Shown: one piece after another, positions 1 through 61,498 of the stretch | How positions within the stretch are numbered: position 1 is the first letter of the stretch | Layout: each line of letters begins with the position of its first letter | Source: Burkholderiales bacterium | Lineage (GTDB): Bacteria > Pseudomonadota > Gammaproteobacteria > Burkholderiales > SG8-39 | Direction of reading: 5' to 3' | DNA: 64,000 nt | NCBI GenBank assembly: GCA_040902335.1 | Contig: JBBDXL010000101.1 | Location: 24,579-88,578, forward strand | Position numbers and translations under genes: made by a program | Notes under the pieces: generated by a model | Seen by the model: the letters and a program-made list of their open reading frames with translations, nothing else | What the model was told of the DNA's origin: nothing | The model's database searches: none

Positions 1-1188
1 GGCGAGCGCCGCGGCGAGCGGCCACAGCACCTGGCGCGCGACGCGCCGGTTGTACCAGGCGAGCACGCCGAGCTTGAAGGCCACGTTGGCGAGGAAGGCG
101 AGCCCGATGGCGAGCGCCGCGGCGCGCGCGGCGACGCGCTCCTCGCCGAACAGGTTCAGCGCCGAAAGCGTGATCGGGTCGATGTCGACCATGCCCGAGG
201 CGAGCGCCGCCGCGTACAGGCCGCGCGCGCCCGCGATTTCCGACAGCCACGCCGAGACGAACAGCACCACCGCGTAGAGCGCGCCGAATTGCAGCGCCGT
301 CGCCAGCGCCGCGGGATTGCGGAACTCGGGCACCGGCGGCGCACCGCGCTCGGTGCGCCGCACGAAAACCGCGGTCACGGCGAGGCCGGCGGCGAGCGCC
401 GCGCCGAGCGCCGGCGCCAGCACCGGCAGCATTCGCGGCTCGACCACGAACGCGAGCAGCGCGATGCGCGCCAGCGGCATCATGTTGGCGAGCGGCACCA
501 CCGTGAGCGCCATGCGCTCCATGGCCGGGGCCTCGCGGCTGTGCCGCGCGTAGAGCACGGTGGTCGCGGTAGAGGACACCAGGCCCCCGAGCGCGCCCGC
601 GAGCAGCGCGCCGCCGCGCGCGCCGGCGAGCCGCAGCGCGACGTAGCTCGCCAGGCCGATGCCCGAGATCAGCACCACCATCAGCCAGATCTGGCGCGGA
701 TTGAGCACCGCGTAGGGGCCGTAGGCGCGGTCGGGCAGGATCGGCAGCACGATGAAGGTGACGATCAGGAACTGCAGCACCGACACCTGCTCGTGGCGCT
801 CGAGCGCGGTGGAGAAGCCCTCGATCTCGGGCTTGAAATACAGAAGCGCGGTGACGCCGATGGCGAGCGCGCCCGCGATCGCGGTCTCGCCCGTGCCCAC
901 CATCACGCCGAGCAGGTAGCACACCGTGGCCGCCGCCACCGTGGTGGTGCCGGGCTCCTCGTCCGCGCCGATGCGCCAGTAGGCGGCGATCAGCATGCCC
1001 GCGACCGCGGCGAGCCCGACCGGCACCACGCCGGGCGCCGCGTCGATGGACGCGGCGAGCGTGCCAGCGAGCGCGATCAGCGCGAACGTGCGCACCCCCG
1101 CCTTGGCCGCGGGATTGCGCTCGCGCTCGAGGCCGATCAGCAGGCCGATGCCGAGGCTTGCGGCAAAGCGCAGCCAGTCGCCGTCCAT
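1..1188 (-). CDS. MgtC/SapB-family membrane protein with DUF4010-like C-terminal region (partial; 3' end lies beyond the window edge)
   Basis: My own translation of the minus strand from ATG 1188: MDGDWLRFAASLGIGLLIGLERERNPAAKAGVRTFALIALAGTL... It is polytopic and hydrophobic and stays open to position 1. It is absent from the ORF track because no stop lies in the window. The + ORF 289..1272 is its antisense shadow. Confidence 0.75.
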   Translation of the reverse strand, partial: MDGDWLRFAASLGIGLLIGLERERNPAAKAGVRTFALIALAGTLAASIDAAPGVVPVGLAAVAGMLIAAYWRIGADEEPGTTTVAAATVCYLLGVMVGTGETAIAGALAIGVTALLYFKPEIEGFSTALERHEQVSVLQFLIVTFIVLPILPDRAYGPYAVLNPRQIWLMVVLISGIGLASYVALRLAGARGGALLAGALGGLVSSTATTVLYARHSREAPAMERMALTVVPLANMMPLARIALLAFVVEPRMLPVLAPALGAALAAGLAVTAVFVRRTERGAPPVPEFRNPAALATALQFGALYAVVLFVSAWLSEIAGARGLYAAALASGMVDIDPITLSALNLFGEERVAARAAALAIGLAFLANVAFKLGVLAWYNRRVARQVLWPLAAALA

Positions 1189-1192
1189 GCGC

Positions 1193-1795
1193 TCATTTCA
1201 GGGGGCGCCACGGCGCGCCGAGGCCCACCGGCGCGGGCGCGAGCTGCGCGATGCGGTGGAACAGGCGCTTGAAATCGTGCTCCGCGGTTCCCGCGAGCGG
1301 ATCCTCGTTGGCGCGGAACGCCGTTGCGATCGCCGCCCAGTCCTCGACCGTGAGCCGCTGCTCCGCGAGCGGCAGCAGCGCCTGCTCCTCCTTGCGCATG
1401 TGCTGCCAGTGGAACTGGGCGTAGGCCTCCACCGCGTCCCGGAACGCGCCGCCGCCCCCGGGCCAGGACTGCTCGTAGCCGAGCACGGAGTGCTCGAGCC
1501 CGCGCGCGAGGCGCGCGCCGGCGACGTGCTCGTCCTGCAGCATGCGCACCAGCGGCGCGGCTTCCGGCGCGCGCTGCTGGAGCCGCGCGAACAGGTGCTG
1601 GTCCTCTTTCGGGTGGTGCAGCTTCTCCGGAAAAGTGTCGATGTAATAGACCATGGCGCGCAGCGCGGCGAAATCGGGGCGCACGCCGGGCTCTTGCGCC
1701 ATGCGCGCGAGCTCGCGCAGGCCGCTCAGCACGGCGCTGATCGAGCGATGCTCGTCGCGCAGGATGCGCACCGCCTCGTGCATCGCCGCCGTCAT
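1193..1795 (-). CDS. hemerythrin (HHE cation-binding) domain protein
   Basis: C-terminal 200 aa of ORF 1193..2131, from ATG 1795 (MTAAMHEAVRILRDEHRSI...HHPKEDQHLF...EHVAGARL...). His/Glu spacing is typical of hemerythrin-like O2/NO/iron sensors. The upstream 112 aa of the ORF are Arg/Cys-rich junk overlapping the next gene. Confidence 0.85.
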   Translation of the reverse strand: MTAAMHEAVRILRDEHRSISAVLSGLRELARMAQEPGVRPDFAALRAMVYYIDTFPEKLHHPKEDQHLFARLQQRAPEAAPLVRMLQDEHVAGARLARGLEHSVLGYEQSWPGGGGAFRDAVEAYAQFHWQHMRKEEQALLPLAEQRLTVEDWAAIATAFRANEDPLAGTAEHDFKRLFHRIAQLAPAPVGLGAPWRPLK

Positions 1796-1802
1796 ATCCG
1801 CG

Positions 1803-2525
1803 TCAGGTGAGGCACAGCAAGCCCGCGCGCACCGCGGCGCGCAGATCCTCGGCGCGCGCGAGGCCCGCCACGCCCATGCCGAGCACGAGCGCGCCGGCGA
1901 CGTTGCGCAGGCGCGTGCGCCCGGGTCCGGCGCGCAGCCACGCGAGCGCACCGCCCGCGCCGAGCAGCCAGGGTAGCGTGCCGGCGCCGAATGCGAGCAT
2001 GGCGAGCGCGCCGCCCGCGGGGCCGCCGGCGAGCGTCGCCGTGACGAGCGCCGCGTACACCATCGCGCAAGGCAGCAGGCCCCAGAGCATGCCGGCGCCC
2101 GAGGCCGCGAGTGTACCCGGCGCGGCGGCAAGCCGCGCCGCCGCCGGCTGCACGCGCCGCCACAGCGGCGCGCCCAGGTTCTCGAACCGCGCCAGCAGGC
2201 GGCCTGCGCCGAGCAGGTACAGGCCGGCGAGGATCAGCACGCCCTGCGCGAGGACGAAGAGCGCGATCTGCGCGGGCAGCGCATCCTGCATGAGCTGCGC
2301 CGCGCCGCCGAGCGCGCCCGCCGCGGCGCCGCCCAGCGCGTAGGTCAGGATGCGGCCGGCGTTGAAGGCGAGCTGCCGCCGCCATTCGGGCGCGGCGCGC
2401 GCCGCCGGCACGATCGGCACGACGCGCCGCGTGCTGAACGCGGCGACGATGCCGCCGCACATGCCCACGCAGTGCAGCCCCGAGGCGAGACCGAACAGCA
2501 GCAGCGCCGGCAGGAGCGCGTCCAC
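1803..2525 (-). CDS. TauE/SafE (DsbD_2-like) family inner-membrane protein
   Basis: 240 aa, GTG start. Gly/Ala/Leu-rich polytopic protein with LHCVGMCGG and LLPCAMVY motifs. It starts 2 nt after the hemN stop. Confidence 0.8.
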   Translation of the reverse strand: MDALLPALLLFGLASGLHCVGMCGGIVAAFSTRRVVPIVPAARAAPEWRRQLAFNAGRILTYALGGAAAGALGGAAQLMQDALPAQIALFVLAQGVLILAGLYLLGAGRLLARFENLGAPLWRRVQPAAARLAAAPGTLAASGAGMLWGLLPCAMVYAALVTATLAGGPAGGALAMLAFGAGTLPWLLGAGGALAWLRAGPGRTRLRNVAGALVLGMGVAGLARAEDLRAAVRAGLLCLT

Positions 2526-2526
2526 G

Positions 2527-3924
2527 TCAGATCACCTTGGAGTATTCGGCGCGCGCTTCGCGCTCGCGCAGGTAGCGGTCGAACACCGCGCACACCACGC
2601 GCACCAGCAGCCGTCCCTTGGGCGTGACGATGATCCAGTCCGGCTGCAGCTCGACCAGCCCGTCGGCTTCGAGCCCGCGCAGGTCCTTCATCTCCGCGGC
2701 GAAGTAGGCGTCGAAGTCGAGCAGGTGCGCGAGCTCCACCGACTCCTTGGCGACGCGGAAATGGCAGCTGAGCGCCTGGATCACGGCGCGGCGCACGAGA
2801 TCGTCCTGCGTCAGCTCCAAGCCGCGCGCCACCGGCAGGCGCCCCGCGTCGAGCGCGGCGTAGTGGTCGTCGAGGCGCTTCTGGTTCTGATAGTAGGTCG
2901 GGCCGATGGCGCCGATCGCCGAGACGCCCAGGCCGATCAGGTCGCTGCCGCGGCGCGTGGAATAGCCCTGGAAGTTGCGCTGCAGGCGACCCTGCGCCTG
3001 GGCGATCGCGAGCTCGTCGTCGGGCCGCGCGAAATGGTCCATGCCGATGTAAAGATAGCCGGCGCGCGTCAGGCGGCCGATGGCGAGCGAGAGGATCTGC
3101 AGCTTCATTTCCGCCGCCGGCAGGTCGGCCTCGGCGATCCGCCGCTGCGGCTTGAACACCTTGGGCAAGTGCGCGTAGCTGTAGAGCGCGATGCGGTCCG
3201 GGTCGAGCGCGACCACCTGGTCGAGCGTGCGGCTGAAGCCGTCCAGGGTCTGCTTGGGCAGGCCGTAGATGAGGTCCAGGTTCACCGAGCCGAAGCCCGC
3301 CGCGCGCGCTTCCCCCACCACGCGGCGCGTTTCCTCTTCGCTCTGGATGCGGTGCACCGCCTTCTGCACCTGGGCGTCGAAGTCCTGGACGCCGAGGGAA
3401 ACGCGGTTGAAGCCCAGCCCGGCGAGGAACGCCATCGTGCCGGGAGCGACGCGGCGCGGGTCCACCTCGATCGAGCATTCGCAGTCGGGCGCGCGCTCGA
3501 AGCGCCGGCAGATCGACTGCATCAGGCTCTGCATTTCCTCGCGCGCGAGGAAAGTGGGCGTGCCGCCGCCCCAATGCAGCTGGCCGATCGCGCGGTTGGC
3601 GCCGAGCGAGGGCTCCAGCGACGCCAGTTCCTTCTCCAAGTACTTGATATACTTGGCCGATCTCAAGCGGTCGCGCGTCACCACCTTGTTGCACGCGCAG
3701 TAGTAGCAGAGCGTGTCGCAAAATGGCAGGTGCACGTAGAGCGAGAGCGGCTGGCTGACGCCGCCGATATTGCGCTTGCCGAGCCACTGCCGCAGCTCGG
3801 CCTCGCCGAACGCCTCGACGAAGCGGTCCGCGGTTGGGTACGAGGTGTAGCGCGGCCCGCTTACGTCGTACTGGCGGATGAGGACCGGGTCGATGACGAG
3901 GTCGGAGGCGGGGTAGCGCTGCAT
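2527..3924 (-). CDS. hemN: oxygen-independent coproporphyrinogen III oxidase (radical SAM)
   Basis: ORF 2527..3969. GPRYTSYPTADRF, radical-SAM cluster motif CDTLCYYCACN, and full-length similarity to HemN. I prefer ATG 3924 (MQRYPASDLVIDPVLIRQYD) because the longer start at 3969 lies inside the FNR box. Confidence 0.95.
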   Translation of the reverse strand: MQRYPASDLVIDPVLIRQYDVSGPRYTSYPTADRFVEAFGEAELRQWLGKRNIGGVSQPLSLYVHLPFCDTLCYYCACNKVVTRDRLRSAKYIKYLEKELASLEPSLGANRAIGQLHWGGGTPTFLAREEMQSLMQSICRRFERAPDCECSIEVDPRRVAPGTMAFLAGLGFNRVSLGVQDFDAQVQKAVHRIQSEEETRRVVGEARAAGFGSVNLDLIYGLPKQTLDGFSRTLDQVVALDPDRIALYSYAHLPKVFKPQRRIAEADLPAAEMKLQILSLAIGRLTRAGYLYIGMDHFARPDDELAIAQAQGRLQRNFQGYSTRRGSDLIGLGVSAIGAIGPTYYQNQKRLDDHYAALDAGRLPVARGLELTQDDLVRRAVIQALSCHFRVAKESVELAHLLDFDAYFAAEMKDLRGLEADGLVELQPDWIIVTPKGRLLVRVVCAVFDRYLREREARAEYSKVI

Positions 3925-3959: not shown

Positions 3960-3973
3960 TTGATTTCAATCAA
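3960..3973. promoter_or_regulatory. FNR-type box TTGATTTCAATCAA (perfect consensus)
   Basis: Palindrome in the hemN / kinase divergent gap. The centre at 3966.5 is 42.5 bp from the hemN ATG 3924. Confidence 0.8.
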
Positions 3974-3998: not shown

Positions 3999-5246
3999 GT
4001 GATCGCCGCCGGGGGGGCGGCGCTCGCCGCGCTGCTGATCATGAACGGCGCCGCGTTCATCCGCGGCATGGACTCCCCCTGGCTGCTGGGCGCAGTCATC
4101 CTCACCGACCTGGCGGTGGTCGGCGTGAGCCTGGTCGCGGCGCTCTGGTCGATCGCGGTCTGGGGCGGGCGCAAGGACGTGAGCGAAGCGCGCCTGGACG
4201 CCATCGTCGACTCGGCGATGGACGCCATCCTCACCGTGGACGCGGCGCAGAACGTCGTGCTGTTCAACCGCGCCGCCGAGCAGATGTTCGGCGTGCGCCG
4301 CGACGACGCCCTCGGCTCGCCGCTCGACCGCTTCATTCCGCAACGCTTCCGCGGCGCGCACCGCGCGCACGTCGAGAAGTTCGGCCACACCGGCGTCACC
4401 AGCCGGCGCATGGGCGACCAGACGACTCTGTGGGCGCTGCGCGCCGACGGCAGCGAGTTCCCCATCGAGGCCTCGATCTCGCAGGCGGGCGAGCCGGGCA
4501 GCCGCTTCTTCACCGTGATCCTGCGCGATATCACGCTCCGCAAGCAGAACGAGGACACGATGCTCCGGCAGCAGCAGGAGCTGCGCGAGCTTTCGGCGCG
4601 CGTGCTGGAGGCGCGCGAGGAGGAAAAGACGCGCATCGCGCGCGAGCTGCACGACGAGCTGGGGCAGCTGCTCACGGCGCTCAAGATGGACCTCGCCTGG
4701 CTGCGCGAGCGCCTGCCCGAGACCGGGCCCGAGCTCGCGGCGCGCGCCGACGGCATGAGCGCGCTCCTCGACCGCACCGTGAGCTCGAGCCGGCGCATCG
4801 CCGCGGACCTGCGGCCGCTGATGCTCGACGACCTCGGGCTCGCCGAGGCGGCGCAATGGCTGGTGGAGGATTTCGCCAAGCGCTCCGCGATCCGGGTCGA
4901 GATGCAGGCGCCCGAAGACCTCGCGCTGGAGGCACTGTCCAAGGGTGCCGCCACGGCGCTGTACCGCGCGCTGCAGGAATCGCTCACCAACATCGCCCGC
5001 CATTCCGGGGCGAAAAGCGCCTGGATCGTGCTGGCGCAGGACAACGGCACGCTGCACCTGGAGATCGAGGACGACGGGCGCGGCATCGCCGCCGAGGACC
5101 TCGCGAAGGCGAGCTCGCTCGGCCTGAAGGGCATGCGCGAGCGCATCGCCTACTACGGCGGCTCGCTGGAAGTGGCGCGCGCGCCGCGCGGCGGCACGCG
5201 GCTGCGCGTGCGCATGCCGCTCCCCTCCGGCGGTGCCGAGGCATGA
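3999..5246 (+). CDS. PAS-domain sensor histidine kinase (HisKA_3 / NarX-DegS type)
   Basis: ORF 3924..5246. One or two N-terminal TM segments, a PAS region (DAIVDSAMDAILTVDAAQNVVLFNRAAEQMFG), an H-box (ELHDELGQLLTAL) and HATPase motifs (DDGRGI, GLKGMRER). The start is uncertain: GTG 3999, ATG 4041 or ATG 4068. ATG 3924 would abut the hemN start. Confidence 0.88.
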   Translation: MIAAGGAALAALLIMNGAAFIRGMDSPWLLGAVILTDLAVVGVSLVAALWSIAVWGGRKDVSEARLDAIVDSAMDAILTVDAAQNVVLFNRAAEQMFGVRRDDALGSPLDRFIPQRFRGAHRAHVEKFGHTGVTSRRMGDQTTLWALRADGSEFPIEASISQAGEPGSRFFTVILRDITLRKQNEDTMLRQQQELRELSARVLEAREEEKTRIARELHDELGQLLTALKMDLAWLRERLPETGPELAARADGMSALLDRTVSSSRRIAADLRPLMLDDLGLAEAAQWLVEDFAKRSAIRVEMQAPEDLALEALSKGAATALYRALQESLTNIARHSGAKSAWIVLAQDNGTLHLEIEDDGRGIAAEDLAKASSLGLKGMRERIAYYGGSLEVARAPRGGTRLRVRMPLPSGGAEA

Positions 5247-5866
5247 TCCGCGTCCTGCTCGCCGACGACCACCAGATCGTGCGCGACGGCCTGCGCGGCA
5301 TTCTCGCCGCGCAGGCCGACGTCGAGGTCGCGGGCGAGGCGGCGGACGGCGACCAGGCGCTCGCGCTGGTGCGCGCCAACGACTACGACGTGGCCGTGCT
5401 CGACCTGTCGATGCCGGGCCTCTCGGGGCTCGACCTCGTCAAGCGCCTGAAGCTGGAAAAGCCGAAGCTCAGGCTGCTCGTGCTCTCGATGCACGGCGAG
5501 CAGCAGTACGCCGTGCGCGCGCTCAAGGCCGGGGCGTCGGGCTATCTCACCAAGGACAGCGCATCGGCGCAGCTGATCGGCGCGCTGCGCAAGATCGCGG
5601 CCGGAGGCGTGCACGTCTCGGAGGCCACCGCCCTCGGGCTGGTGAGCGCGGCGAGCGGCGACGGCCCGCCGCACGCGCGCCTCTCGGACCGCGAGTTCGA
5701 GGTGTTGAAGCTGCTCGCCGGCGGCGCGAGCCCTACGGACATCGCGCGCAGGCTGCACCTGTCGGTGAAGACCGTGAGCACGCACAAGACGCGCGTGCTG
5801 GACAAGCTCGGTCTGGGCGGCACCGCGGAGCTGGTGCGCTACGCCCTGGAGCACAAGCTGGTCTAG
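5243..5866 (+). CDS. NarL/FixJ-family response regulator (REC + LuxR-type HTH)
   Basis: MIRVLLADDHQIVRDGL...DLSMPGLSG...LSDREFEVLKLLAGGASPTDIARRLHLSVKTVSTHKTRVLDKLG. The ATG overlaps the kinase stop (ATGA). Confidence 0.95.
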   Translation: MIRVLLADDHQIVRDGLRGILAAQADVEVAGEAADGDQALALVRANDYDVAVLDLSMPGLSGLDLVKRLKLEKPKLRLLVLSMHGEQQYAVRALKAGASGYLTKDSASAQLIGALRKIAAGGVHVSEATALGLVSAASGDGPPHARLSDREFEVLKLLAGGASPTDIARRLHLSVKTVSTHKTRVLDKLGLGGTAELVRYALEHKLV

Positions 5867-5934
5867 GACTTTTCCGAGCCGCGAATCAGCCGCCGCCGAT
5901 GGCCGGCGCCGCGGCGCGCCGCCACACTGGCGGC

Positions 5935-6312
5935 ATGCAAACGCGCACCGTCTATCTCGTAGAGGACTCGCCCCTGGTGAGCGAGCGCCTGCTCGAGATG
6001 CTCGAGGACGTGCCCGGCGTGCGCGTGACGGGCCACACCACACGCGCCGACGACGCGATCCGCGACATCCTCGCCGGGCGTCCCGACGTCGTGGTGCTCG
6101 ACATCCGGCTCGCGCAGGGCAGCGGCTTCGATGTGCTGCGTGCGCTGCACGATCAGGCGCCCGAGATCGAGGTCTACATGCTCTCCAGCTTCGCCTCCGA
6201 TCCGTACCGGCACCTCGCCGCGCGGCTCGGGGCGCGCGGCTTCTTCGACAAGGCCACCGAATTCACCCGCGTGCGCGACGCCGTCGCCGCGCGCGCCGCG
6301 CTCACGCACTGA
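5935..6312 (+). CDS. single-domain response regulator (CheY-like receiver only)
   Basis: C-terminal 125 aa of ORF 5233..6312, from ATG 5935: MQTRTVYLVEDSPLVSERLLEML...DVVVLDIRLAQGSGFDVLRAL. Confidence 0.85.
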   Translation: MQTRTVYLVEDSPLVSERLLEMLEDVPGVRVTGHTTRADDAIRDILAGRPDVVVLDIRLAQGSGFDVLRALHDQAPEIEVYMLSSFASDPYRHLAARLGARGFFDKATEFTRVRDAVAARAALTH

Positions 6313-6329
6313 AGAAAAGAGAGGACGCC

Positions 6330-7070
6330 ATGCACGCTGTCACCGCCATTCACGCCGCGCCCGCATCGAAGAAGTTCGAAGTCACCTGCTCGAGCTGCAA
6401 CCTGCGCGAGATGTGCCTGCCCGCCGGGCTGTGCGCCGAGGACCTCGAGCGCATCGAGAACGTGGTCTACGCGCGCCGGCGCCTGAAGCGCGGCGAGCCG
6501 CTGTTCAATGCCGGGGACAGCTTCAGCGCGGTGTACGCCATCCGCAGCGGCTTCTTCAAGACCAGCCTGCTCGACCCCGACGGGCGCGAGCAAGTCACCG
6601 GCTTCTTCATGGGCGGGGAGCTGCTCGGCATGGACGGCATCGGCGGCGCGCACCACGGCACCGCCATCGCGCTCGAGGACAGCGAGGTGTGCGTGCTGCC
6701 CTACGCGCTGATCGAGGACCTGTCGCGCGAGATCCCGGCGCTGCAGCGCCAGCTGCACGCGGTGCTGGCGCGCGAGATCGCGCGCGACCACGGCGTGATG
6801 ATGCTGCTCGGCTCGATGCGCGCCGAGGAGCGCCTGGCGACGTTCCTGCTCAACCTGTCCAGGCGCTTCGTGCGCCGCGGCTACTCCTCGACCGAGTTCC
6901 ACCTGCGCATGACGCGCGACGAGATCGGCAGCTACCTCGGCCTGAAGCTGGAGACGGTGAGCCGGCTGTTCTCCGCGTTCCAGAAGGACGGCCTGATCGA
7001 GGTGCAGCAGAAGCACGTGCGCATCCGCGAAATCGAGGGCCTGGAGCGGGTGCTCGCGACGCGGCACTGA
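6330..7070 (+). CDS. fnr: FNR (Crp/Fnr family, [4Fe-4S] oxygen-sensing transcription factor)
   Basis: 246 aa. N-terminal CSSCNLREMC aligns with E. coli FNR C20/C23/C29 and DSEVCVLPY with C122. The recognition helix ETVSRLF matches E. coli ETISRLL. An AAGAGAGGA Shine-Dalgarno sequence lies upstream. Confidence 0.95.
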   Translation: MHAVTAIHAAPASKKFEVTCSSCNLREMCLPAGLCAEDLERIENVVYARRRLKRGEPLFNAGDSFSAVYAIRSGFFKTSLLDPDGREQVTGFFMGGELLGMDGIGGAHHGTAIALEDSEVCVLPYALIEDLSREIPALQRQLHAVLAREIARDHGVMMLLGSMRAEERLATFLLNLSRRFVRRGYSSTEFHLRMTRDEIGSYLGLKLETVSRLFSAFQKDGLIEVQQKHVRIREIEGLERVLATRH

Positions 7071-7129
7071 GGGGGCTTTCGATCGCCTAGCGACTTCGAA
7101 TTGCCCGCATACCCGAAGTAACATGGGGT

Positions 7130-11020: not shown

Positions 11021-11023
11021 GAG

Positions 11024-16953: not shown

Positions 16954-17000
16954 GGCGGTCAACCTCAGGGGCTATGGTGCGTTGCACGCCTGCGCCGGAC

Positions 17001-17014
17001 TTGACCTGGATCAA
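17001..17014. promoter_or_regulatory. FNR-type box TTGACCTGGATCAA
   Basis: Perfect TTGAY-N4-RTCAA. The centre at 17007.5 is 54.5 bp upstream of the E2 ATG 16953, which allows a leader carrying a Shine-Dalgarno sequence. Confidence 0.7.
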
Positions 17015-17099
17015 CTGCGGGGCAAGCCCCGGGTGGGACGCGACGTCGTTTCTGGTGCTCTACAATTCGAACCGCAACGCGACAAAGAACCAGACGCAG

Positions 17100-44808: not shown

Positions 44809-44815
44809 TCGGGCG

Positions 44816-45490: not shown

Positions 45491-45971
45491 CCGTGGCCGC
45501 TTCGGCCGGCGTGCCGCGCTCGCCGTGCACCACGAGCTCCGGCGCGAGCGGCGGCTCGTAGGCTGCCTGCACCCCCGGCAGCGCAGCGCTCCTGCCCTCG
45601 CGCGCCGCGCGGTACAGGCCCTTCGGATCGCGCGCGGCGCACACCTCGAGCGGCGTATCGACGAACACTTCGGCGAAGCGCACGATGCTCGAGCGCGCCG
45701 CATCGCGGTAGGCGCGCAGGTTCGCCGTGGCGTCGAAGATCACGGGCCGGCCCTGCGCGACGACGTACGCCCCGAGCTGCGCGAGCGCCGCGTAGAAGAA
45801 GTCGCGCTCGGCCGGCGCGTAGCTCGCGAACGGCGTGAGCTGGGTGCGCAAGACGTCGGATTCGAGCACCGCGGCGTCGAGCCCGCGCGCGTGCAGCAGC
45901 GCGAGGAGCTCGCGCGCGATCGCGCTCTTGCCGGAGCCCGAGAGACCCGTCAGCCACACCGCGAAGCTCAT
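45450..45971 (-). CDS. P-loop kinase of the adenylyl-sulfate kinase (CysC-like) family
   Basis: 173 aa. WLTGLSGSGKSAIA (Walker A), FDATANLRAYRD, ARDPKGLYRAAREG. The ATG overlaps the upstream stop (ATGA). Confidence 0.8.
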   Translation of the reverse strand: MSFAVWLTGLSGSGKSAIARELLALLHARGLDAAVLESDVLRTQLTPFASYAPAERDFFYAALAQLGAYVVAQGRPVIFDATANLRAYRDAARSSIVRFAEVFVDTPLEVCAARDPKGLYRAAREGRSAALPGVQAAYEPPLAPELVVHGERGTPAEAATVIAGWLEARGWLG

Positions 45972-56282: not shown

Positions 56283-57542
56283 CTAAGCTGCGCGCTGAGC
56301 GCCTGCGTCTTCGCGGTGTGCGCGCTGCTCGTAGAGGAACTCCCGGCTCATGGGGTAGCTGCTGCGGGTGGCGTTGCCCTTCGAGAACACGATCTGGAAC
56401 AGGTGCGTGTAGCCGCGCGCCGAGCGGAACATCTCCGCGCAGCCGTACAGGTACACGCGCCAGACGCGCCGGAAGCGCTCATCGAACTTCTTCGGGTCGA
56501 GCGCCTGGATCTCCGCCCAGTGGCGATCGAACCTCTCGCCCCAGGCATCGAGCGTCAGCGCGTAGTGCCGGCGCAGGTTCTCGACGTCCACCACCTCCAG
56601 CCCGGCGCACTCCATGGCGGCGAGGGTGTGCGCGAGGCTCGGGATCCAGCCGCCCGGGAAGACGTGCCGGCGGATGAAGAAGTCGGTCTGGAAGTGCCCG
56701 ACGTGGCCGATGAAGTGCAGTATCCCCAGCCCGCCCGGCTTGAGGAACGCCGCGTGCGCGCGCACCACCTCGTCGAGATGGTCGCGCCCGGCGTGCTCCA
56801 GGGTGCCGATCGAGACCACCTTGTCGTACTCGCGGTGCGCGTCGCGGAAATCCGTGTCGATCACCTCGAGCGCGCGCCCGAGGCCGCGGCGCGCGATCTC
56901 GGCGCGCACCATCTCCACCTGCGAGGAGGTGTTGTTGATGCCGGTGACCCTGACGCCGAACTTCTCGTGCGCGTGGAACATGAAGCCGCCGAAGCCGCTG
57001 CCGATGTCCACCACCTCCTCGCCCGGGGCGAGGCGGAGCTTCTTCGCCACGTGCTCGATTTTGTTCTTCTGCGCTTCCTCGAGCGTCCGGGTGCCTTCCT
57101 TCCAGTAGGCGCAGGTGTACATCATGTGCGGGTCGTCGAGCCAGTAGCGGTAGAACTCGGTGCCCAGCGCGTAGTGGAACTCGGCGTTGCGCTTCGCCTG
57201 CGCCCAGTCGCGGTTGGAGAAGCGCAGCTCGTGCCAGCGGTTGCGCACGCCGGTGAGGAGCTTGGCCCTCGCCACGCCGCCCTCCAGGCCCGCGGCCATG
57301 GCGCTGGCGAGGCTGCCCTCGCAGTCGAGGTCGCCGTCGAAGTAGGACTCCAGCAGGCCGACGTGGCCGAACGCCGCTATGCGCGCGTAGGCCGCGGCGC
57401 GATTGAAGACCAGCGTGAACGCCGGCGCCTCGTCGCGGTTGCGGTACTCGCCGCCGCCCGCGAAGCGCACGGCGAAGGGAATGCGGGTGCGCTTGCCCGC
57501 CTTGCTCAGGATCGATTCGACCAGGGCTCTCACGGCCGGCAA
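56283..57542 (-). CDS. cfa: cyclopropane-fatty-acyl-phospholipid synthase family SAM methyltransferase
   Basis: 419 aa. HYALGTEFYRYWLD, VVDIGSGFGGF (SAM motif I), LEHAG, YLYGCAEMFR. Confidence 0.9.
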   Translation of the reverse strand: MPAVRALVESILSKAGKRTRIPFAVRFAGGGEYRNRDEAPAFTLVFNRAAAYARIAAFGHVGLLESYFDGDLDCEGSLASAMAAGLEGGVARAKLLTGVRNRWHELRFSNRDWAQAKRNAEFHYALGTEFYRYWLDDPHMMYTCAYWKEGTRTLEEAQKNKIEHVAKKLRLAPGEEVVDIGSGFGGFMFHAHEKFGVRVTGINNTSSQVEMVRAEIARRGLGRALEVIDTDFRDAHREYDKVVSIGTLEHAGRDHLDEVVRAHAAFLKPGGLGILHFIGHVGHFQTDFFIRRHVFPGGWIPSLAHTLAAMECAGLEVVDVENLRRHYALTLDAWGERFDRHWAEIQALDPKKFDERFRRVWRVYLYGCAEMFRSARGYTHLFQIVFSKGNATRSSYPMSREFLYEQRAHREDAGAQRAA

Positions 57543-57563: not shown

Positions 57564-58394
57564 TCAGTGCGACATCAGCACCGGCACCGTCATCGCCTCG
57601 AGCAGGGTGCGCGTCGCCCCGCCGAGCACCATCTCGCGCACGCGCGCGTGCCCGTAGGCGCCCATGACGATCAGGTCCGCGGCGACGTCGGCGGCGCGCG
57701 ACAGGATCTGCGAGCCGACGTCGTAGCCCGCGCCGCTCTGGCGCGCCACCGTCACCTTCACGCCGTGGCGCGCGAGGAACAGGCCGACGTCGGCCCCGGG
57801 CTGCTCGCCGTGATGGCGCTGGCCCTTCTCCGGGTCGAAAGCGCACACCTCGACCGCCGCGGCGCGCTGCAGGAACGGCAGCGCGTCGGTGACCGCGCGC
57901 GCCGCCTCGCGCCCCGCGTCCCAGGCGACGAGCACGCGCTTGCCGAGCGCGGGGAAACGCCCCGCGTAGGGCACGAACAGCACCGGGCGGCCGGCGGAGA
58001 ACACCAGCTCGTCGGCGAGGCCGCGCAGGCCGCCTTCGTCCCCGGCCTCGGGCTGGCCCGCCACCACCAGGTCGGCGTAGCGCGCGGACAGGCGCACGGC
58101 CGCCGCCGGGTCGGCCTGCGAGCTGCGCCATTCGGCGCGCCCGCCGAAGCGCCGCGAGGCGTCGCGAAAGCGGCGCTCGGCCTCGCCCAGCATCTCGGCG
58201 TTGCGCTTCTCGAGCAAGTCGCGCAGCAGCGGCCCGCCCTCGGCCAGCGCGTACGACGGCAGCCGCGGGACACCGGGTGCGAACAGCCCGACGACGTGGG
58301 CGTCGAACTCGTCGGCGAGGCTGCAGGCAAGCTCGAGCCGCTCCGTGCTGCGCGGCTGGTGATCGAGGTGCACGAGGATCGTCTTGTAGGTCAT
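57564..58394 (-). CDS. universal stress protein, tandem UspA domains
   Basis: 276 aa. MTYKTILVHLDH...LVVAGQ...VMGAYGHARVREMVLGGATRTLLEAMTVPVLMSH. GGAGAG Shine-Dalgarno sequence. Confidence 0.9.
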   Translation of the reverse strand: MTYKTILVHLDHQPRSTERLELACSLADEFDAHVVGLFAPGVPRLPSYALAEGGPLLRDLLEKRNAEMLGEAERRFRDASRRFGGRAEWRSSQADPAAAVRLSARYADLVVAGQPEAGDEGGLRGLADELVFSAGRPVLFVPYAGRFPALGKRVLVAWDAGREAARAVTDALPFLQRAAAVEVCAFDPEKGQRHHGEQPGADVGLFLARHGVKVTVARQSGAGYDVGSQILSRAADVAADLIVMGAYGHARVREMVLGGATRTLLEAMTVPVLMSH

Positions 58395-58445: not shown

Positions 58446-58459
58446 TTGACTTAGGTCAA
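58446..58459. promoter_or_regulatory. FNR-type box TTGACTTAGGTCAA
   Basis: Centre at 58452.5. The USP ATG 58394 is at -58.5 and has a Shine-Dalgarno sequence. ATG 58493 is at +40.5, with TAGGCT at -12 to -7. Confidence 0.75.
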
Positions 58460-58492: not shown

Positions 58493-59068
58493 ATGCCGTG
58501 CGCGATGCGCTGTGCGTTGATCCTGGCGGCAGCCGCGCTTTGCGGCTGCCAGTCGCTGCTGCCGCGGGCGGACCTCGCCACGCAGCAGGCCTGGGGCGAC
58601 TTCGAGGAGGCGCGCGCGGCCATCGCGCGCATCGCGCCGAAGCAGACCACGCGCACCGAGCTGTCGGCCGCGGGCATCGATCCCCTGAAGAACGCCTCGG
58701 TCTCCATCCGAGGCCTGCCCGACGTCATGCAGCGCTTCACCGTGGGCACGGCGGTCGACGCGCAGGACCTCGACCCCGGCATTCGCGAGTGCCTGGCCGC
58801 AGGCAATGCCTGCACCGGCTACGCGATCCTCGTGCGACGCAGCGACCGCCGGAGGATCGGCAGCTTTTGGGCCGACATCTTCAACTTCCGCCGTGAAACC
58901 GACGTCACCGGCTGGACCTTCAACGCGCTGATCCTGTTCGTCGGCGACACCGTGGTGTACACGGTGCACGGCGGCCAGCCGCGCATCTACGAGAAGGAAG
59001 TGAGCCGCAACCCGCTCGGTCCGCTGCAAGGCCTGGGCGAGGCGGCGGGCTCGGCGCTCACGCGCTAG
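58493..59068 (+). CDS. putative lipoprotein of unknown function
   Basis: 191 aa. The signal peptide with a lipobox-like sequence is ALILAAAALCGCQ. The alternative start is ATG 58505. Confidence 0.6.
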   Translation: MPCAMRCALILAAAALCGCQSLLPRADLATQQAWGDFEEARAAIARIAPKQTTRTELSAAGIDPLKNASVSIRGLPDVMQRFTVGTAVDAQDLDPGIRECLAAGNACTGYAILVRRSDRRRIGSFWADIFNFRRETDVTGWTFNALILFVGDTVVYTVHGGQPRIYEKEVSRNPLGPLQGLGEAAGSALTR

Positions 59069-59069
59069 G

Positions 59070-60497
59070 TCAAACCCCCGTCGCCTCGGCCATTAGCGCG
59101 CGCCACTGCCGGTAGCGCGCGCGCAGCTCATGGTCCGCCGCGGGGGCGAAAACGTCCTCGCCCCCCGCGGCGTTCCACCCGGCGGGCCGCCCCGCGGCGA
59201 GATAGGCGATGCCGCGCGCGCTCGCCTCGGGATCCTCGCGCCGGTGCACGGGCAGGCCGCTCACCGCGGCGAGCCGCCGGCACAGGCCGTCCAGGCGCGA
59301 CACGCCGCCGCTCACGCGCATGCGCCGCGCGGGCGGCACGTACCGCGCCATGTGGTCGATGTTCGCCTGCAGCAGGAAGGCGATGCTCTCCACCACCGCC
59401 ACCGCCTTTTGCCGGGGCTCGCCCTCGCCTTCGAAGCGCGAGACGAAATCGGCCCTCCAGAACGGCCCGCCCAGCCCGGCGATGCCGTTGAGGAACAAAG
59501 GCGGCGACCCCGATCGCTCGAGCCAGGCGGGAAGTCGGGCGGCGACGTCCCGGATGCCCAGCGTCTCCTCGAGCCAGGCGAGCGCCGTGCCGGCGCCGTT
59601 GACGTTGCCTTCCACCATGTAGACCGTAAGGTCGCGCTCGGCGAGGATGATGCCGGTGAGCTGGCGCGGCACGTGGCCGGGCGAGCGCGTGAGCGCGCGC
59701 TGCACGAAGGCGCTGGTGCCGATGTTGACGTAGGCGCAGTCCTCCTCCGGCCAGCCGGACGCGAACACCGCGGCCGACTGGTCGCCGTTGACCGCGGTGA
59801 GCGGCACCGAGAGGCCGGACGTCTCGAGCGTTCCCCAGTCGTGGATCGTCGGCACGCTTCGCGGCAGGACGCCCGCGGGCAGCCCGAACAGCGCGAGCAG
59901 TTCGGCATCCCAGTCGCGCGTGTGGATGTTCCACAGCTGCGTGCGTGCCGCGCATTGCGGCTCGGCGAGAAACGGCCGCTCCTTGAGCAGGCGAAAAGCC
60001 AGGAAACTCGCCATCGGGCCCCAGGCGAGCGTGCCCGCTTCCAACGCGGCGCGCACCGCCGGGAGCTCGTCGAGCGCCCAGCGCAGCTTGCTCGCGCCGT
60101 AGTGCGGCGACAGGTACAGGCCCGTCTTCCTGTGCACGGCGTCGCCGTGCTCCTTCTCGAGCGCGGCGATCCAGGCGTGCGCGCGCCGGTCCTGCCAGCT
60201 GAAGATCGGGGACAGGGCCCGGCCCGTGACGCGGTCCCAGCACACCGCGTTCGAGCGCTGGCTGGCGAGGCCGGCGGCGGAAATTTCCACCTTGCGCCCG
60301 CCGAGCGAGCGCAGGGCCTGTGCTACGGCATCGAAGATCGAGGCCACGATCTCTTCGCCGTCCTGCTCGGCCCGATCCGGCTGCGGGTGCGCCAGCGCGA
60401 TCTCGCGCACGCCGCGCGCGACGGCGCGGCCCGCCTCGTCCACCACCAGCGCGCGGCTTGCATGCGTGCCCTGATCGATGGCGAGGACGAGACTCAT
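59070..60497 (-). CDS. FGGY-family carbohydrate kinase (glycerol-kinase-like)
   Basis: 475 aa. LAIDQGTHASRALV, QRSNAVCWDR, GDQSAAVFASG, and C-terminal GGVSR... Confidence 0.9.
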   Translation of the reverse strand: MSLVLAIDQGTHASRALVVDEAGRAVARGVREIALAHPQPDRAEQDGEEIVASIFDAVAQALRSLGGRKVEISAAGLASQRSNAVCWDRVTGRALSPIFSWQDRRAHAWIAALEKEHGDAVHRKTGLYLSPHYGASKLRWALDELPAVRAALEAGTLAWGPMASFLAFRLLKERPFLAEPQCAARTQLWNIHTRDWDAELLALFGLPAGVLPRSVPTIHDWGTLETSGLSVPLTAVNGDQSAAVFASGWPEEDCAYVNIGTSAFVQRALTRSPGHVPRQLTGIILAERDLTVYMVEGNVNGAGTALAWLEETLGIRDVAARLPAWLERSGSPPLFLNGIAGLGGPFWRADFVSRFEGEGEPRQKAVAVVESIAFLLQANIDHMARYVPPARRMRVSGGVSRLDGLCRRLAAVSGLPVHRREDPEASARGIAYLAAGRPAGWNAAGGEDVFAPAADHELRARYRQWRALMAEATGV

Positions 60498-60514
60498 ACT
60501 AAGATGCTAGCCCT

Positions 60515-61498
60515 ATGGCTCGCGTCGGGGTGATCGGCGGCGGCGCCTTCGGCACCGCCATGGCGTGCGTCGTGCGCCGCTCGGGCCACGACGTGATCCT
60601 CTGGGCGCTCGAGCCGGAGGTCGTCGAGGACATCAATCGGCGCAGCCGCAACGAGCATTTCCTCCCCGGCGTGCGGCTGCCCGAGGGCATACGCGCGACG
60701 AACGACATCGGCGAGGCGGCCGCGGGCGCGGCATTCCTGCTGCTCGCGCCGCCGGCGCAACGCATGCGCGCAATCGCGGCGCGCCTCGCGCCGGTCCTCG
60801 CGCCGGGCACGCCCGTCGTGAGCTGCTCCAAGGGGTTGGAGCAGGAAAGCCTCGCCTTGATGCCGGAAGTGCTCGCCGACGCGCTGCCGGGGTCGCCGGT
60901 CGCGGTGCTCTCCGGGCCGTCCTTCGCGCGCGAAGTCGGCCAGGACCTGCCGTGCGGCGTGGCGCTCGCCAGCGGCAACGGTGCGCTCGCGCGCCGCCTT
61001 GCCGGACTGATCGCCAACCCCCGTTTCGGCGTGCAGCCGAACACGGACGTCATCGGCACCGCCATCGGCGGCGTGATGAAGAACGTGGTGGCGATCGCGA
61101 GCGGCCTGCTCGCGGGCCGCAAGCTCGGCGAGAATGCGCGCGCCACCATGGTCACGGTCGGCCTCGCGGAGGCGGTGCGCTTCGGCCTCGCCAAGGGCGC
61201 GCAGCGCGAGACCTTCGACGGCCTCGCGGGCATCGGCGACATGATGCTCACCGCCAGCAGCATGCAGTCGCGCAACACCTCGCTCGGCTTCGCGCTGGGT
61301 GAAGGCAAGACGCTCCAGGAGGTGCTCGCCGGGCGCAAGCAGGTCTTCGAAGGCGCGTTTTCGGCGCAGGCCGTGGTGAAAACCGCGCGCCCGCTGAGCG
61401 TGGACATGCCGGTGTCGTTCGCCGTGGACGAGCTGCTCAACCACGGGGCGCGCGTCGATGCCACCGTGGAACGCCTCACCGCCGCGTTTGGCGGCTAG
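60515..61498 (+). CDS. gpsA: NAD(P)H-dependent glycerol-3-phosphate dehydrogenase
   Basis: 327 aa. VGVIGGGAFGTAMA, LSGPSFAREV, GGVMKNVVAIASG, SRNTSLG. Confidence 0.95.
   Translation: MARVGVIGGGAFGTAMACVVRRSGHDVILWALEPEVVEDINRRSRNEHFLPGVRLPEGIRATNDIGEAAAGAAFLLLAPPAQRMRAIAARLAPVLAPGTPVVSCSKGLEQESLALMPEVLADALPGSPVAVLSGPSFAREVGQDLPCGVALASGNGALARRLAGLIANPRFGVQPNTDVIGTAIGGVMKNVVAIASGLLAGRKLGENARATMVTVGLAEAVRFGLAKGAQRETFDGLAGIGDMMLTASSMQSRNTSLGFALGEGKTLQEVLAGRKQVFEGAFSAQAVVKTARPLSVDMPVSFAVDELLNHGARVDATVERLTAAFGG

Follow-up and report, generated by a model that had tools for sequence, protein, structure and literature searches.

The window analysed here is a stretch of 64,000 nucleotides from contig JBBDXL010000101.1 of the Burkholderiales bacterium assembly GCA_040902335.1, and it is densely packed with genes, many of which face palindromic boxes of the type bound by the oxygen-sensing regulator FNR. 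Gene calling with a codon model trained on confident open reading frames (ORFs), followed by annotation with Pfam and NCBIfam, yielded 65 genes that occupy 96% of the window. The genes named in a preliminary description, which had been made from the letters alone and had proposed an FNR-wired hypoxia and persistence island, were all recovered where it had placed them. That proposal is well supported by the sequence, yet what it describes is an instance of a published kind: the window probably represents a chromosomal low-oxygen survival cluster of the lxa (low-oxygen-activated) type, carried by an uncultured soil Burkholderiales bacterium.

The G+C content is approximately 71% and stays between 0.69 and 0.75 throughout the window, apart from a restriction-modification insert and two short stretches. 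Scans of the window for transfer RNA (tRNA) genes and Rfam families returned no matches, and no integrase occurs among the Pfam matches of its genes. The hallmarks of a genomic island (tRNA gene, integrase and deviant composition) are thus missing from the window, and a classical mobile island is ruled out by the lack of a tRNA gene and the even G+C content.

Relatives were collected by scanning species-representative genomes with the window's HPF protein, which gave 80 loci, nearly all from uncultured Betaproteobacteria. Three further comparison loci were added, two of them lxa-like (L081 and L082, the latter from Burkholderia) and one from an Azospirillum plasmid (L083), making 83 in all. 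The closest relative is a Danish soil metagenome-assembled genome (MAG), MFD10007.bin.2.212, labelled 'uncultured beta proteobacterium', with HPF and RtcB 89% and 94% identical, respectively, to those of the window. As its nearest relative is an uncultured betaproteobacterial soil MAG, the window does not belong to Burkholderia in the strict sense.

FNR boxes and the regulators encoded with them

The box TTGAYNNNNRTCAA (TTGAY-N4-RTCAA) occurs 13 times in the window against a mean of 0.02 in shuffled sequences, which rules out clustering by chance. All copies lie at a gene start or no more than about 10 nucleotides (nt) from one, bar a single copy (52984) in the 3' end of the ORF at 52915. Two extra sites, one relaxed (50984) and one with a single mismatch (36133), occupy comparable positions. 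The sites are as follows, with distances running from the box centre to the start codon.

3960-3973: FNR box TTGATTTCAATCAA, between HemN and the sensor kinase gene
17001-17014: FNR box before the E2 acyltransferase gene
23442-23455: FNR box common to the acetate-CoA ligase (acs) operon and the GNAT operon
28851-28864: FNR box common to BCAM0308 (41.5 nt) and DksA (55.5 nt, with a Shine-Dalgarno sequence)
30598-30611: FNR box 40.5 nt upstream of nicotinate phosphoribosyltransferase (NAPRTase)
34248-34261: FNR box 42.5 nt upstream of PolX and 40.5 nt from the divergent ORF 34295-34612
34849-34862: FNR box ahead of the plus-strand genes that end at 38427
36133-36146: one-mismatch box before a phosphoribosyltransferase (PRTase) gene
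41245-41258: FNR box common to the solute-binding protein SBP1 (41.5 nt) and a 107-amino-acid (aa) ORF (40.5 nt)
41627-41640: FNR box for HPFcold
42543-42556: FNR box ahead of FtsH
50984-50997: relaxed box TTGATCCATCTCAA, for the minus-strand operon 45450-50997
52984-52997: FNR box within the stretch coding for the C-terminal extension of mini-HPF
53288-53301: FNR box between mini-HPF (44.5 nt) and a thiamine pyrophosphate (TPP)-dependent enzyme (34.5 nt); its target is ambiguous
58446-58459: FNR box 58.5 nt from a universal stress protein (USP) gene and 40.5 nt from the ATG at 58493

The boxes are conserved beyond the window. Upstream of HPFcold, five of six close loci keep the box and a CATCCT/CATGCT -10 hexamer amid diverged flanks, and at least 15 loci have a strict box 60-80 nt upstream of the same gene. 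In the close relatives L001, L003 and L004, stretches of 16-20 kb contain 5-7 boxes each.

A block of four plus-strand genes downstream of box 3960 encodes the candidate regulators.

3999-5246 (+): sensor kinase with a haem-PAS domain (FixL/DosP-like), HisKA_3 and HATPase (Pfam and Protein Data Bank (PDB) search)
5243-5866 (+): NarL/FixJ-type response regulator (Pfam)
5899-6312 (+): stand-alone receiver protein in a FixT-like position (Pfam)
6330-7070 (+): CRP/FNR regulator, FNR

The protein at 6330-7070 aligns with Aliivibrio fischeri FNR (5cvr/5e44) at an E value of 1e-56. Its C-x2-C-x5-C motif and a fourth cysteine line up with the FNR cysteines (tCssCnlremC, sevCvlpy), and its recognition helix reads ETVSRL where 5cvr has ETISRL, which keeps the E--SR motif. 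Judged by these residues, it is a true oxygen-sensing FNR whose expected target is the enriched box. The pairing of such boxes with an FNR gene in one window had been proposed in the preliminary description and holds.

The kinase and its response regulator had been likened to DosS and DosR of Mycobacterium tuberculosis. Both are present, and in PDB searches the kinase PAS domain matches that of FixL (1.9e-13) and DosP (1.6e-10); the catalytic core is of the DesK/VraS type, and the match to DosT covers the catalytic domain only (7e-7). The response regulator matches VraR (1.3e-32) and NarL (5.5e-32) ahead of DevR (1.9e-29). A kinase stretch, FRGAHRAH, presumably falls where the proximal-histidine motif of FixL (YRHEHDGY) would, its position having been compared with the FixL sequence by eye and not in a printed alignment. 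DosS and DosT sense through GAF domains, so the layout of the block is nearer to FixL-FixJ-(FixT)-FixK than to DosS/DosR.

Two well-known regulatory systems help to place this block. Like the FixLJ-FixK(-FixT) cascade of rhizobia, Caulobacter and Burkholderia, it encodes a haem-PAS kinase, a FixJ/NarL-type regulator, a single receiver and a CRP/FNR protein together, with TTGAT-N4-ATCAA boxes downstream. Unlike FixK, however, its CRP/FNR member keeps the FNR cysteines and can thus be expected to sense oxygen itself, and the kinase carries a HisKA_3 domain of the DesK/NarX type. With the Anr regulon of Pseudomonas aeruginosa and the FNR regulon of Escherichia coli, the window shares the TTGAT-N4-ATCAA box and, as predicted from sequence, an oxygen-labile [4Fe-4S] regulator, class II promoters with the site at -41.5 and USPs as targets. 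Those regulons are dispersed and serve mainly anaerobic respiration and fermentation, whereas the genes of the window are clustered, serve mainly dormancy and maintenance, and include no respiratory reductase.

Spacing between boxes and start codons

The distance from box to start codon is strikingly regular. In 11 of 26 box directions, a long ORF opens with an ATG at 40.5-42.5 nt from the centre of the box, against 0.47 expected (binomial P = 4e-13). This spacing concerns 11-12 genes, at boxes 3960, 23442, 28851, 30598, 34248, 34849, 36133, 41245, 42543 and 58446, and several of these boxes face two divergent genes of this class approximately 81-85 bp apart. A TAnnnT-like hexamer follows most boxes by 21-23 nt and precedes these ATGs by 6-8 nt. 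For example, the distance from the centre of box 3960 to the HemN ATG is 42.5 nt, the GNAT ATG lies 40.5 nt from box 23442 with AACAAT as its -10 hexamer, and the FtsH ATG at 42592 lies 42.5 nt from box 42543; for NAPRTase, the hexamer is TAGGGT and the longest ORF begins at the 40.5-nt ATG. A Shine-Dalgarno-like motif precedes none of 11 genes of this class but 21 of the 54 others (P = 0.012), and leadered genes of the window (HPFcold, DksA, the 79-aa gene, USP and SBP2) have clear AGGAG-type Shine-Dalgarno sequences.

Across the window and the 80 loci, the histogram of box-to-ATG distances holds 15, 11 and 9 cases at 40.5, 41.5 and 42.5 nt, compared with approximately 3 per bin. Different genes contribute in different genomes, among them DksA, HPFcold, PRPP (phosphoribosyl pyrophosphate) synthetase and archease (L001, L008, L011, L013, L015, L020, L023 and L080). 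GTG starts across the loci are only mildly enriched at 40.5-42.5 nt. The same histogram has a secondary peak at 32.5 nt (14 cases), which probably reflects ATG triplets within -10 hexamers (CATGCT, AGCATG) and not true starts.

Class II FNR sites are centred at -41.5 from the transcription start site, so that transcripts from promoters with this spacing should begin at the start codon. The geometry implies that approximately half of the promoters would make leaderless messenger RNAs (mRNAs) as predicted class II FNR promoters. Some of the start codons concerned were fixed independently of the spacing: the ORFs of NAPRTase, PolX and PRTase offer no start codon ahead of the ATG in question, with Pfam domains beginning at residues 4-9, and for BCAM0308 the start is set by a length of exactly 164 aa, shared by most homologues among the matches listed (120 of 849). 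The acetate-CoA ligase is a less direct case, as the ATG of its longer form overlaps box 23442, while a GTG at 23407 lies 41.5 nt from that box and the NCBIfam alignment starts at residue 16 of the longer form; translation may start at this GTG.

Several observations count against this reading of the promoters. The starts of SBP1, FtsH, hyp58517 and the acetate-CoA ligase were chosen partly by the spacing, which makes the argument circular for those four, and only about 40% of the other genes have a Shine-Dalgarno-like motif by the simple test used, so the contrast is modest. Spacings depart from class II for the TPP enzyme (34.5 nt), the 93-aa gene hyp34551 (23.5 nt) and the kinase, whose GTG lies at 32.5 nt, and archease-rtcB lies 125.5 nt from its box, past an intrinsic terminator. 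Leaderless mRNAs are rare in B. cenocepacia, with approximately 90 coding sequences (PMC4603805), and the Burkholderia lxa-like locus L082 lacks the geometry when box positions are compared with annotated starts; this suggests a clade-specific feature. FixK, Anr, Dnr and other members of the family recognise TTGAT-N4-ATCAA as well, which makes the encoded FNR a candidate and not a proven binder, and we infer every regulatory step from sequence.

Given these points, the spacing might be a by-product of short intergenic regions or of mis-called starts, with the real transcription start sites elsewhere. The re-called starts, the modest Shine-Dalgarno contrast and the scarcity of leaderless genes in B. 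cenocepacia would all fit this explanation, which we nevertheless regard as unlikely, because the independently fixed starts, the sharpness of the peak over three bins in different genes and genomes, and the strong Shine-Dalgarno sequences on leadered genes of the same locus speak against it. A second alternative, which seems rather improbable to us, is that the boxes are mainly used by another CRP/FNR paralogue encoded elsewhere (of the FixK, Dnr or NnrR type), or that the FixL-like kinase is the top sensor, so that the response is to microoxia, nitric oxide or redox state. The order of kinase, response regulator, receiver and fnr resembles FixLJ-FixT-FixK, three Anr-like candidates are found in B. 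cenocepacia (PMC3721108), and a 2025 review proposes that FixL acts through FixJ and FixK on Lxa in Burkholderia (PMC12071387). In the Nitrosomonadales loci, moreover, which have no FNR boxes, the BCAM0308, CBS-pair and HPF genes have a PAS kinase and a NarL-type regulator within a few kb, and this regulator might stand in for FNR there. On the other hand, a search upstream of BCAM0308 in these Nitrosomonadales loci found no other shared palindrome, the regulator of the window has the full set of FNR cysteines that FixK-type proteins lack, and box 3960 stands upstream of the string of genes from kinase to fnr, which suggests autoregulation by the box-binding protein. We favour the encoded FNR as the probable activator of promoters that would in part be leaderless.

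A probable ribosome hibernation module within a recurrent gene pool

Four genes of the cluster encode proteins that point to the ribosome.

41701-42249 (+): HPFcold, with S30AE (PF02482) and cold-shock (PF00313) domains (Pfam)
52915-53250 (-): mini-HPF
28322-28816 (-): BCAM0308-family, Nmd3-like zinc-ribbon protein, 164 aa
27862-28320 (-): CBS-pair protein, in one operon with BCAM0308

The preliminary description had called the first two HPF-like. The protein at 41701-42249 matches Coxiella burnetii CBU_0020 (PDB 9t0z/9tze) over residues 1-176 at an E value of 1.4e-46 and is, on this homology, an HPFcold. The Coxiella structure was solved in 2026 by cryo-electron microscopy, and in it the HPF domain blocks the decoding site while the cold-shock domain holds the anti-Shine-Dalgarno end of 16S ribosomal RNA on 70S monomers (PMC13392368). 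Sharing the two-domain build, the window protein should act likewise on 70S monomers. It differs in being predicted to stand under FNR control and in the company of an Nmd3-like protein, a CBS-pair protein and a second, truncated HPF, associations that do not appear in the cited passages of the Coxiella report (PMC13392368).

The ORF at 52915-53250 has by itself no Pfam, NCBIfam or PDB sequence match, and no copy was found in the 83 loci. Its weak coding score and lack of family matches had made it a candidate non-gene, a view overturned by a full-library search, a profile and the fold. The family comprises 24 representative clusters of 85-95-aa proteins, and its profile matches HPFcold at 3.5e-6. 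In the AlphaFold2 model (pLDDT 91.7), the protein has an alpha-beta-beta-beta-alpha arrangement lacking strand 1 of the beta-alpha-beta-beta-beta-alpha HPF fold and superposes on RaiA/HPF folds with TM scores of 0.65-0.78. As modelled, it is a small protein of the HPF fold without the first strand.

BCAM0308 is matched by the NCBIfam equivalog NF040826 (lxa_BCAM0308) with 199 bits against a cutoff of 100. Its AlphaFold2 model (pLDDT 84) finds its best fold match in the eukaryotic, pre-60S protein Nmd3 (5t62_V, E 8e-4), in agreement with a weak Pfam NMD3 match. HPFcold beside Nmd3-like BCAM0308 and the CBS-pair protein recurs across Betaproteobacteria. In Nitrosomonadales (L038-L059), genes for BCAM0308, the CBS pair and HPF follow one another on a single strand, in what is probably an operon, with groEL or hsp20 upstream of them; there, the HPF match covers the HPF domain and not the cold-shock domain. 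In archaea, the hibernation factors HibA and AHA combine HPF and CBS parts in one fusion protein, in support of a functional link of HPF with the CBS-pair protein. HPFcold, mini-HPF, BCAM0308 and the CBS-pair protein may act together on idle ribosomes.

A tblastn survey of all window proteins against the 80 loci found the same families around HPF in shuffled order in Burkholderiales, Thiobacillus, Rhodocyclaceae, Hydrogenophilus, Nitrosospira, Nitrotoga and Gallionella. The families are listed with the number of loci, out of 79, in which they occur near HPFcold, and then the number in which they are directly adjacent to it.

BCAM0308: 31/79 loci; adjacent in 26
CBS pair: 22/79 loci; adjacent in 17
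93-aa protein (hyp34551): 16/79 loci; adjacent in 7
PRTase: 13/79 loci; adjacent in 7
79-aa protein (hyp42251): 12/79 loci; adjacent in 8
NAPRTase: 8/79 loci; adjacent in 0
DksA: 7/79 loci; adjacent in 1
Dienelactone hydrolase (DLH): 7/79 loci; adjacent in 6
PolX: 6/79 loci; adjacent in 1
FtsH: 6/79 loci; adjacent in 3
RtcB with archease: 5/79 loci; adjacent in 0

The cluster is one arrangement of a widespread dormancy tool-kit. Plasmid p05 of Azospirillum sp. TSH58, an alphaproteobacterial megaplasmid (L083, 230872-261330), brings together Hsp20, BCAM0308, DUF2267, NAPRTase, PRPP synthetase, a FadD-like ligase, two USPs, a kinase and a Crp/Fnr protein, and no strict TTGAY-N4-RTCAA box occurs in this locus. 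In the window, 8 kb separate the PRTase gene from the DLH gene, and the two are neighbours in L015, L069, L070 and L080 (also in L054); in L015, they share a strand with PRTase first.

The remaining genes of the window are listed below, with annotations from Pfam unless another source or none is given.

1-1188 (-): MgtC/DUF4010, continuing past the window edge
1193-1795 (-): hemerythrin
1803-2525 (-): DsbD_2
2527-3924 (-): HemN, of the oxygen-independent coproporphyrinogen oxidase type
7130-8557 (+): ferric-reductase-like membrane flavoprotein
8554-9408 (+): tandem-domain USP
9341-16962 (-): operon of E2 acyltransferase (15808-16962; likely true start ATG 16953), acyl carrier protein (ACP), MgtE-CBS, P2-type cation ATPase (11914-14613), tandem USP (11024-11917) and Na+/H+ exchanger-TrkA_N (9341-11020)
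16974-19618 (+): restriction-modification pair, Eco57I-like methylase and XamI-type endonuclease
19795-20748 (-): E1 beta
20745-21737 (-): E1 alpha
21734-23452 (-): acetate-CoA ligase (NF003313, 883 bits)
23489-27835 (+): operon of GNAT, HAD (24013-24714), trehalose-phosphatase family (24711-25463) and GH65 (25460-27835; also NCBIfam)
28913-29287 (+): DksA/TraR zinc-finger protein
29284-30564 (-): NAPRTase
31020-31847 (-): LOG or 'lysine decarboxylase' family protein without a box of its own (TIGR00730)
32509-34212 (-): PolX-PHP DNA polymerase/repair protein
34295-34612 (+): ORF divergent from PolX (no annotation)
34551-34832 (-): conserved 93-aa protein (hyp34551)
34849-38427 (+): after the box, a 53-aa membrane peptide (34896), a 59-aa protein (35075), PRPP synthetase (35251-36141), PRTase (36180-36833) and a FadD-like acyl-CoA ligase (36808-38427)
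38483-39111 (-): VapBC-type toxin-antitoxin pair, PIN and MazE/AbrB-like antitoxin
39233-40111 (+): M28 peptidase
40095-41261 (-): solute-binding protein SBP1; likely true start ATG 41210
41292-41615: 107-aa ORF
42251-42490 (-): conserved 79-aa protein (hyp42251)
42543-45490 (+): after the box, FtsH (likely true start ATG 42592), two PspC proteins (44389-44808) and an alpha/beta (DLH-type) hydrolase (44816-45490; weak DLH match)
45450-50997 (-): operon of a solute-binding protein, ABC ATPase, ABC permease, APH-family kinase and APS-kinase-like protein
51005-52435 (-): RtcB RNA ligase (577 bits)
52437-52865 (-): archease (141 bits)
52875-52896 (-): strong intrinsic terminator with a 9-bp stem and a T7 tail; 9 nt separate its end from the archease ATG
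53329-54993 (+): TPP-dependent enzyme, benzoylformate-decarboxylase-like but below the cutoff
54995-56197 (-): FAD_binding_4 oxidase
56283-57542 (-): cyclopropane-fatty-acid (CFA) synthase
57564-58394 (-): USP
58493-59068 (+): 191-aa putative lipoprotein, from the ATG at 58493
59070-60497 (-): FGGY sugar kinase
60515-61498 (+): GpsA

Gene packing is tight in several of these units. The gaps within the HemN operon (1-3924) measure 1-7 nt, and the genes of operon 9341-16962 overlap by 4 nt. NCBIfam groups the P2-type ATPase of that operon with Ca-type P2A enzymes. The three USPs (8554-9408, 11024-11917 and 57564-58394) measure 276-297 aa, two of them having two USP stretches and the third having one. 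The ORFs of HAD, trehalose phosphatase and GH65 overlap in series, and the GNAT gene stands 5' of them; by inference, the HAD protein is probably beta-phosphoglucomutase-like, and the GH65 protein is, by its family, a predicted phosphorylase or hydrolase.

The restriction-modification pair, with a G+C content of 62-66% against approximately 71% elsewhere, interrupts the acs-E1a-E1b-E2-ACP operon between E1 beta and E2. This operon is unbroken in L008 and L035. The pair is an insertion and lies outside the regulon; nothing convincing in the way of repeat scars was found flanking it. Compared with L008 and L035, only the window has the box at 17001 before E2, and this box lies within the 5' end of the methylase ORF. 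The VapBC-type pair, also within the cluster, has no FNR box and a slightly lower G+C content.

The 93-aa protein hyp34551 has no Pfam or NCBIfam match, and 18 tblastn matches at E <= 1e-3. The spacer between its gene and that of the 53-aa peptide (34832-34896) measures 63 nt in the window against 81 nt in L034 (5569-5651), and box 34849 abuts the TAAGAT -10 hexamer of the 93-aa gene; this gene may have lost FNR activation or may be repressed. The leader predicted from box 52984 on the minus strand contains CUACCUCCUCCUAAAG, akin to the anti-Shine-Dalgarno end of 16S ribosomal RNA, in a hairpin loop (fold z = -2.4). The hairpin may function in attenuation or as a decoy that the cold-shock domain would bind, or may be due to chance since the stretch codes for the C-terminus of mini-HPF.

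Membership of the FGGY kinase and GpsA in the cluster is doubtful because they have no box. GpsA adjoins the BCAM0308-HPF genes in L005 and L078. The divergent start codons of the two genes are 17 nt apart (CAT-N17-ATG), so that either each promoter lies inside the opposite gene or the starts are mis-called.

Relation to the lxa locus and to the DosR regulon

The lxa locus of B. cenocepacia J2315 spans BCAM0275a-BCAM0323 (Sass et al. 2013, PMC3721108). It is induced at 6% oxygen and required for anoxic survival, it has a TGA-N6-TCA (FNR/Anr-like) motif at 17 intergenic points, an internal Anr-like regulator and six USPs, and its authors drew an explicit parallel to DosR (PMC3721108). A table in the 2025 review lists the proteins that the Anr regulon shares with the Lxa locus and the DosR regulon, and the review also proposes the FixL-FixJ-FixK-Lxa cascade (PMC12071387). 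The preliminary description had rightly cited lxa as a precedent, the window being an lxa-type cluster, but it underrated how much had been established, as motif, Anr-like regulator and DosR parallel are all contained in these two papers. An FNR/Anr-motif low-oxygen locus paralleling DosR is an already published concept (2013, PMC3721108; 2025, PMC12071387).

The window shares several traits of lxa. Many co-located genes carry an FNR/Anr-like palindrome, represented by the 13 strict boxes, and the run of kinase, regulator, receiver, FNR and USP at 3999-9408, together with three USPs in all, matches BCAM0287-0292. Both are chromosomal clusters of approximately 50-60 kb with a cation ATPase beside a USP, an internal FNR-type regulator and two-component system, multiple USPs, a BCAM0308-family gene, an FtsH-type protease, a LOG ('lysine decarboxylase') gene and a stated DosR parallel. 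The lxa-like Burkholderia locus L082, from a plasmid and chromid collection, has BCAM0308 and FtsH side by side, USPs, ackA, class II ribonucleotide reductase and pfkB, with eight strict boxes in 40 kb. Between the window and the lxa-like loci L081 and L082, FtsH is 50-52% and the USPs are 42-46% identical, and the 59-aa protein (35075) has a 64% identical copy in L082.

On the other hand, a comparison with the published lxa gene table shows that most of its 50 genes have no counterpart in the window (PMC3721108). Alpha-crystallin, nitroreductase, class II ribonucleotide reductase, PfkB, polyhydroxyalkanoate synthesis, ackA-pta and alcohol dehydrogenases are missing. The window in turn has RtcB/archease, HPFcold, mini-HPF, the CBS pair, NAPRTase, PRPP synthetase, PRTase, PolX, DksA, the GH65, trehalose phosphatase and HAD genes, acs-E1-E2-ACP and HemN, and its host is an uncultured Burkholderiales lineage of approximately 71% G+C. 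Homology of BCAM0308, FtsH, the USPs and the 59-aa protein combined with mostly different cargo makes the window a variant of the lxa kind.

The preliminary description went further, stating that nearly 60 kb of the window is filled with DosR counterparts and mirrors the DosR regulon almost gene for gene. Neither statement survives the comparison: only about 18 of the 65 genes belong to families with a DosR-regulon member, representing about 11 DosR families, while about 45 have no DosR counterpart and the hallmark genes for alpha-crystallin, nitroreductases, NrdZ, PfkB, Tgs1, NarK2/NarX and FdxA are missing. Its remark that the boxes are not of the DosR type is borne out, as the only match to the DosR box (GGGACT-N-AGTCCC) in the window has one mismatch and lies inside a coding region, against 2.6 expected.

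The families held in common are USPs, a CtpF-type ATPase, RtcB, archease, PncB, PRTase/DLH, the OtsB1 domains, a CBS pair, HPF-type factors, an E2 fragment and a NarL-type regulator with a HisKA_3 kinase. We take Rv0571c to be a fusion of PRTase and DLH domains in that order, and OtsB1 one of HAD, trehalose phosphatase and GH65; the adjacency of PRTase and DLH in the same order in four related loci lends the former one indirect support. Published work identifies Rv2631 as RtcB, Rv2630 as archease and Rv0571c as a PRTase (PMC5309233, PMC7753917). According to published annotations, Rv0573c is PncB2, Rv0079 is the hibernation factor RafH, Rv1738 is a ribosome-shutdown protein, Rv1996-Rv1997 are a USP beside the Ca-ATPase CtpF, and Rv2006 (OtsB1) is a 1327-aa 'glycosyl hydrolase' with trehalose-phosphatase homology.

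Both systems appear to be survival programmes for hypoxia and non-replication, as far as function in the window can be predicted from its genes. They differ in wiring and layout, with FNR boxes, an Fe-S FNR and a haem-PAS kinase in the window where DosR has its own box and haem-GAF kinases: the sensor domain is a PAS of the FixL/DosP type, not a DosS/DosT-type haem-GAF, and the regulator is a generic NarL family member. The DosR genes are scattered over nine blocks whereas those of the window are clustered, and most genes on either side have no partner. In PDB searches, the CBS-pair protein reaches Rv2626c at 4.7e-7 (rank about 18), compared with 5e-13 for archaeal CBS proteins, and the USP reaches Rv2623 at an E value of about 5e-6. 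Rv1738 was unmatched in sequence and fold searches with the HPF-type proteins of the window; the two HPF-like proteins of the preliminary description hold as such, and the assignment to Rv1738 is unsupported. Wherever it was tested with M. tuberculosis structures, the DosR likeness is, by these matches, one of protein families only. The family parallel is nonetheless broader than the list in the lxa paper.

It might still be argued that the cluster is a true counterpart of the DosR regulon, near gene for gene, acquired by descent or horizontal gene transfer with the regulator swapped. The number of shared families, the USP beside the P2-ATPase that mirrors Rv1996-Rv1997, the neighbouring PRTase and DLH genes of L015, L069, L070 and L080, the consecutive HAD, trehalose phosphatase and GH65 genes that follow the presumed domains of OtsB1, and the remark in a review of the M. 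tuberculosis genes that environmental bacteria widely carry DosR genes, possibly owing to horizontal transfer, would be in line with this. We consider it very improbable given the majority of unmatched genes and the missing signature genes, the different sensor domain and box, and the uniform G+C content in a window without a tRNA gene or an integrase among its Pfam matches. Nor are the M. tuberculosis proteins the nearest solved relatives in the cases of Rv2626c, Rv2623, Rv1738 and DevR. The likeness more likely reflects a shared pool of dormancy families on which different regulators draw, and not an orthologous regulon.

Taken together, these data suggest how an FNR-controlled survival cluster of this kind could work. 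As oxygen falls, FNR (6330-7070) would retain its [4Fe-4S] cluster and dimerise, bind approximately 14-15 TTGAT-N4-ATCAA sites, many of them common to two divergent promoters, and from the class II position at -41.5 activate approximately 20 transcription units comprising about 50 of the 65 genes. The FixL-like kinase, FixJ/NarL-type regulator and receiver would probably supply a second, microoxic input, and at about half of the promoters the spacing would put the transcription start on the start codon and yield leaderless mRNAs. The predicted cargo would cover ribosome shutdown and RNA repair (HPFcold, mini-HPF, Nmd3-like BCAM0308, CBS pair, RtcB with archease, DksA), NAD and nucleotide salvage (NAPRTase, PRPP synthetase, PRTase), proteostasis and envelope (FtsH, PspC, M28 peptidase, CFA synthase), ion homeostasis (P2-ATPase, MgtE, MgtC, Na+/H+ exchanger, USPs), carbon handling (acetyl-CoA synthetase with E1/E2/ACP, GH65/trehalose phosphatase/HAD, TPP enzyme), oxygen-independent haem synthesis (HemN) and DNA repair (PolX).

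A more speculative thought, to which we give little weight, is that the regulon is built on a switch in the mode of translation. Leaderless survival mRNAs, which need no Shine-Dalgarno pairing, would be translated by 70S ribosomes while HPFcold sequesters the anti-Shine-Dalgarno end, Shine-Dalgarno-dependent translation would be turned off, and ribosomes would be stored and repaired. It is an equally tentative part of this idea that the same regulon would also induce mini-HPF, the Nmd3-like 50S-face protein, the CBS-pair energy sensor and RtcB/archease. If true, such a switch would be a Gram-negative parallel to the prominent leaderless mRNAs of dormant mycobacteria.

What the window adds to the published lxa concept is its different cargo, broad modular distribution, hibernation triad and apparent leaderless FNR promoters. 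It indicates that a clustered hypoxia and persistence programme of the FNR type is not peculiar to the Burkholderia cepacia complex and that its genes come from a modular pool, reshuffled among soil Betaproteobacteria and extending to Azospirillum megaplasmids. The families newly added to the list shared with DosR (RtcB/archease, PncB, PRTase-DLH, the OtsB1 domains, CBS pair and HPF types) offer comparative handles on DosR genes of unexplained function, and the conserved triad of HPF, Nmd3-like and CBS-pair proteins suggests new partners in ribosome hibernation.

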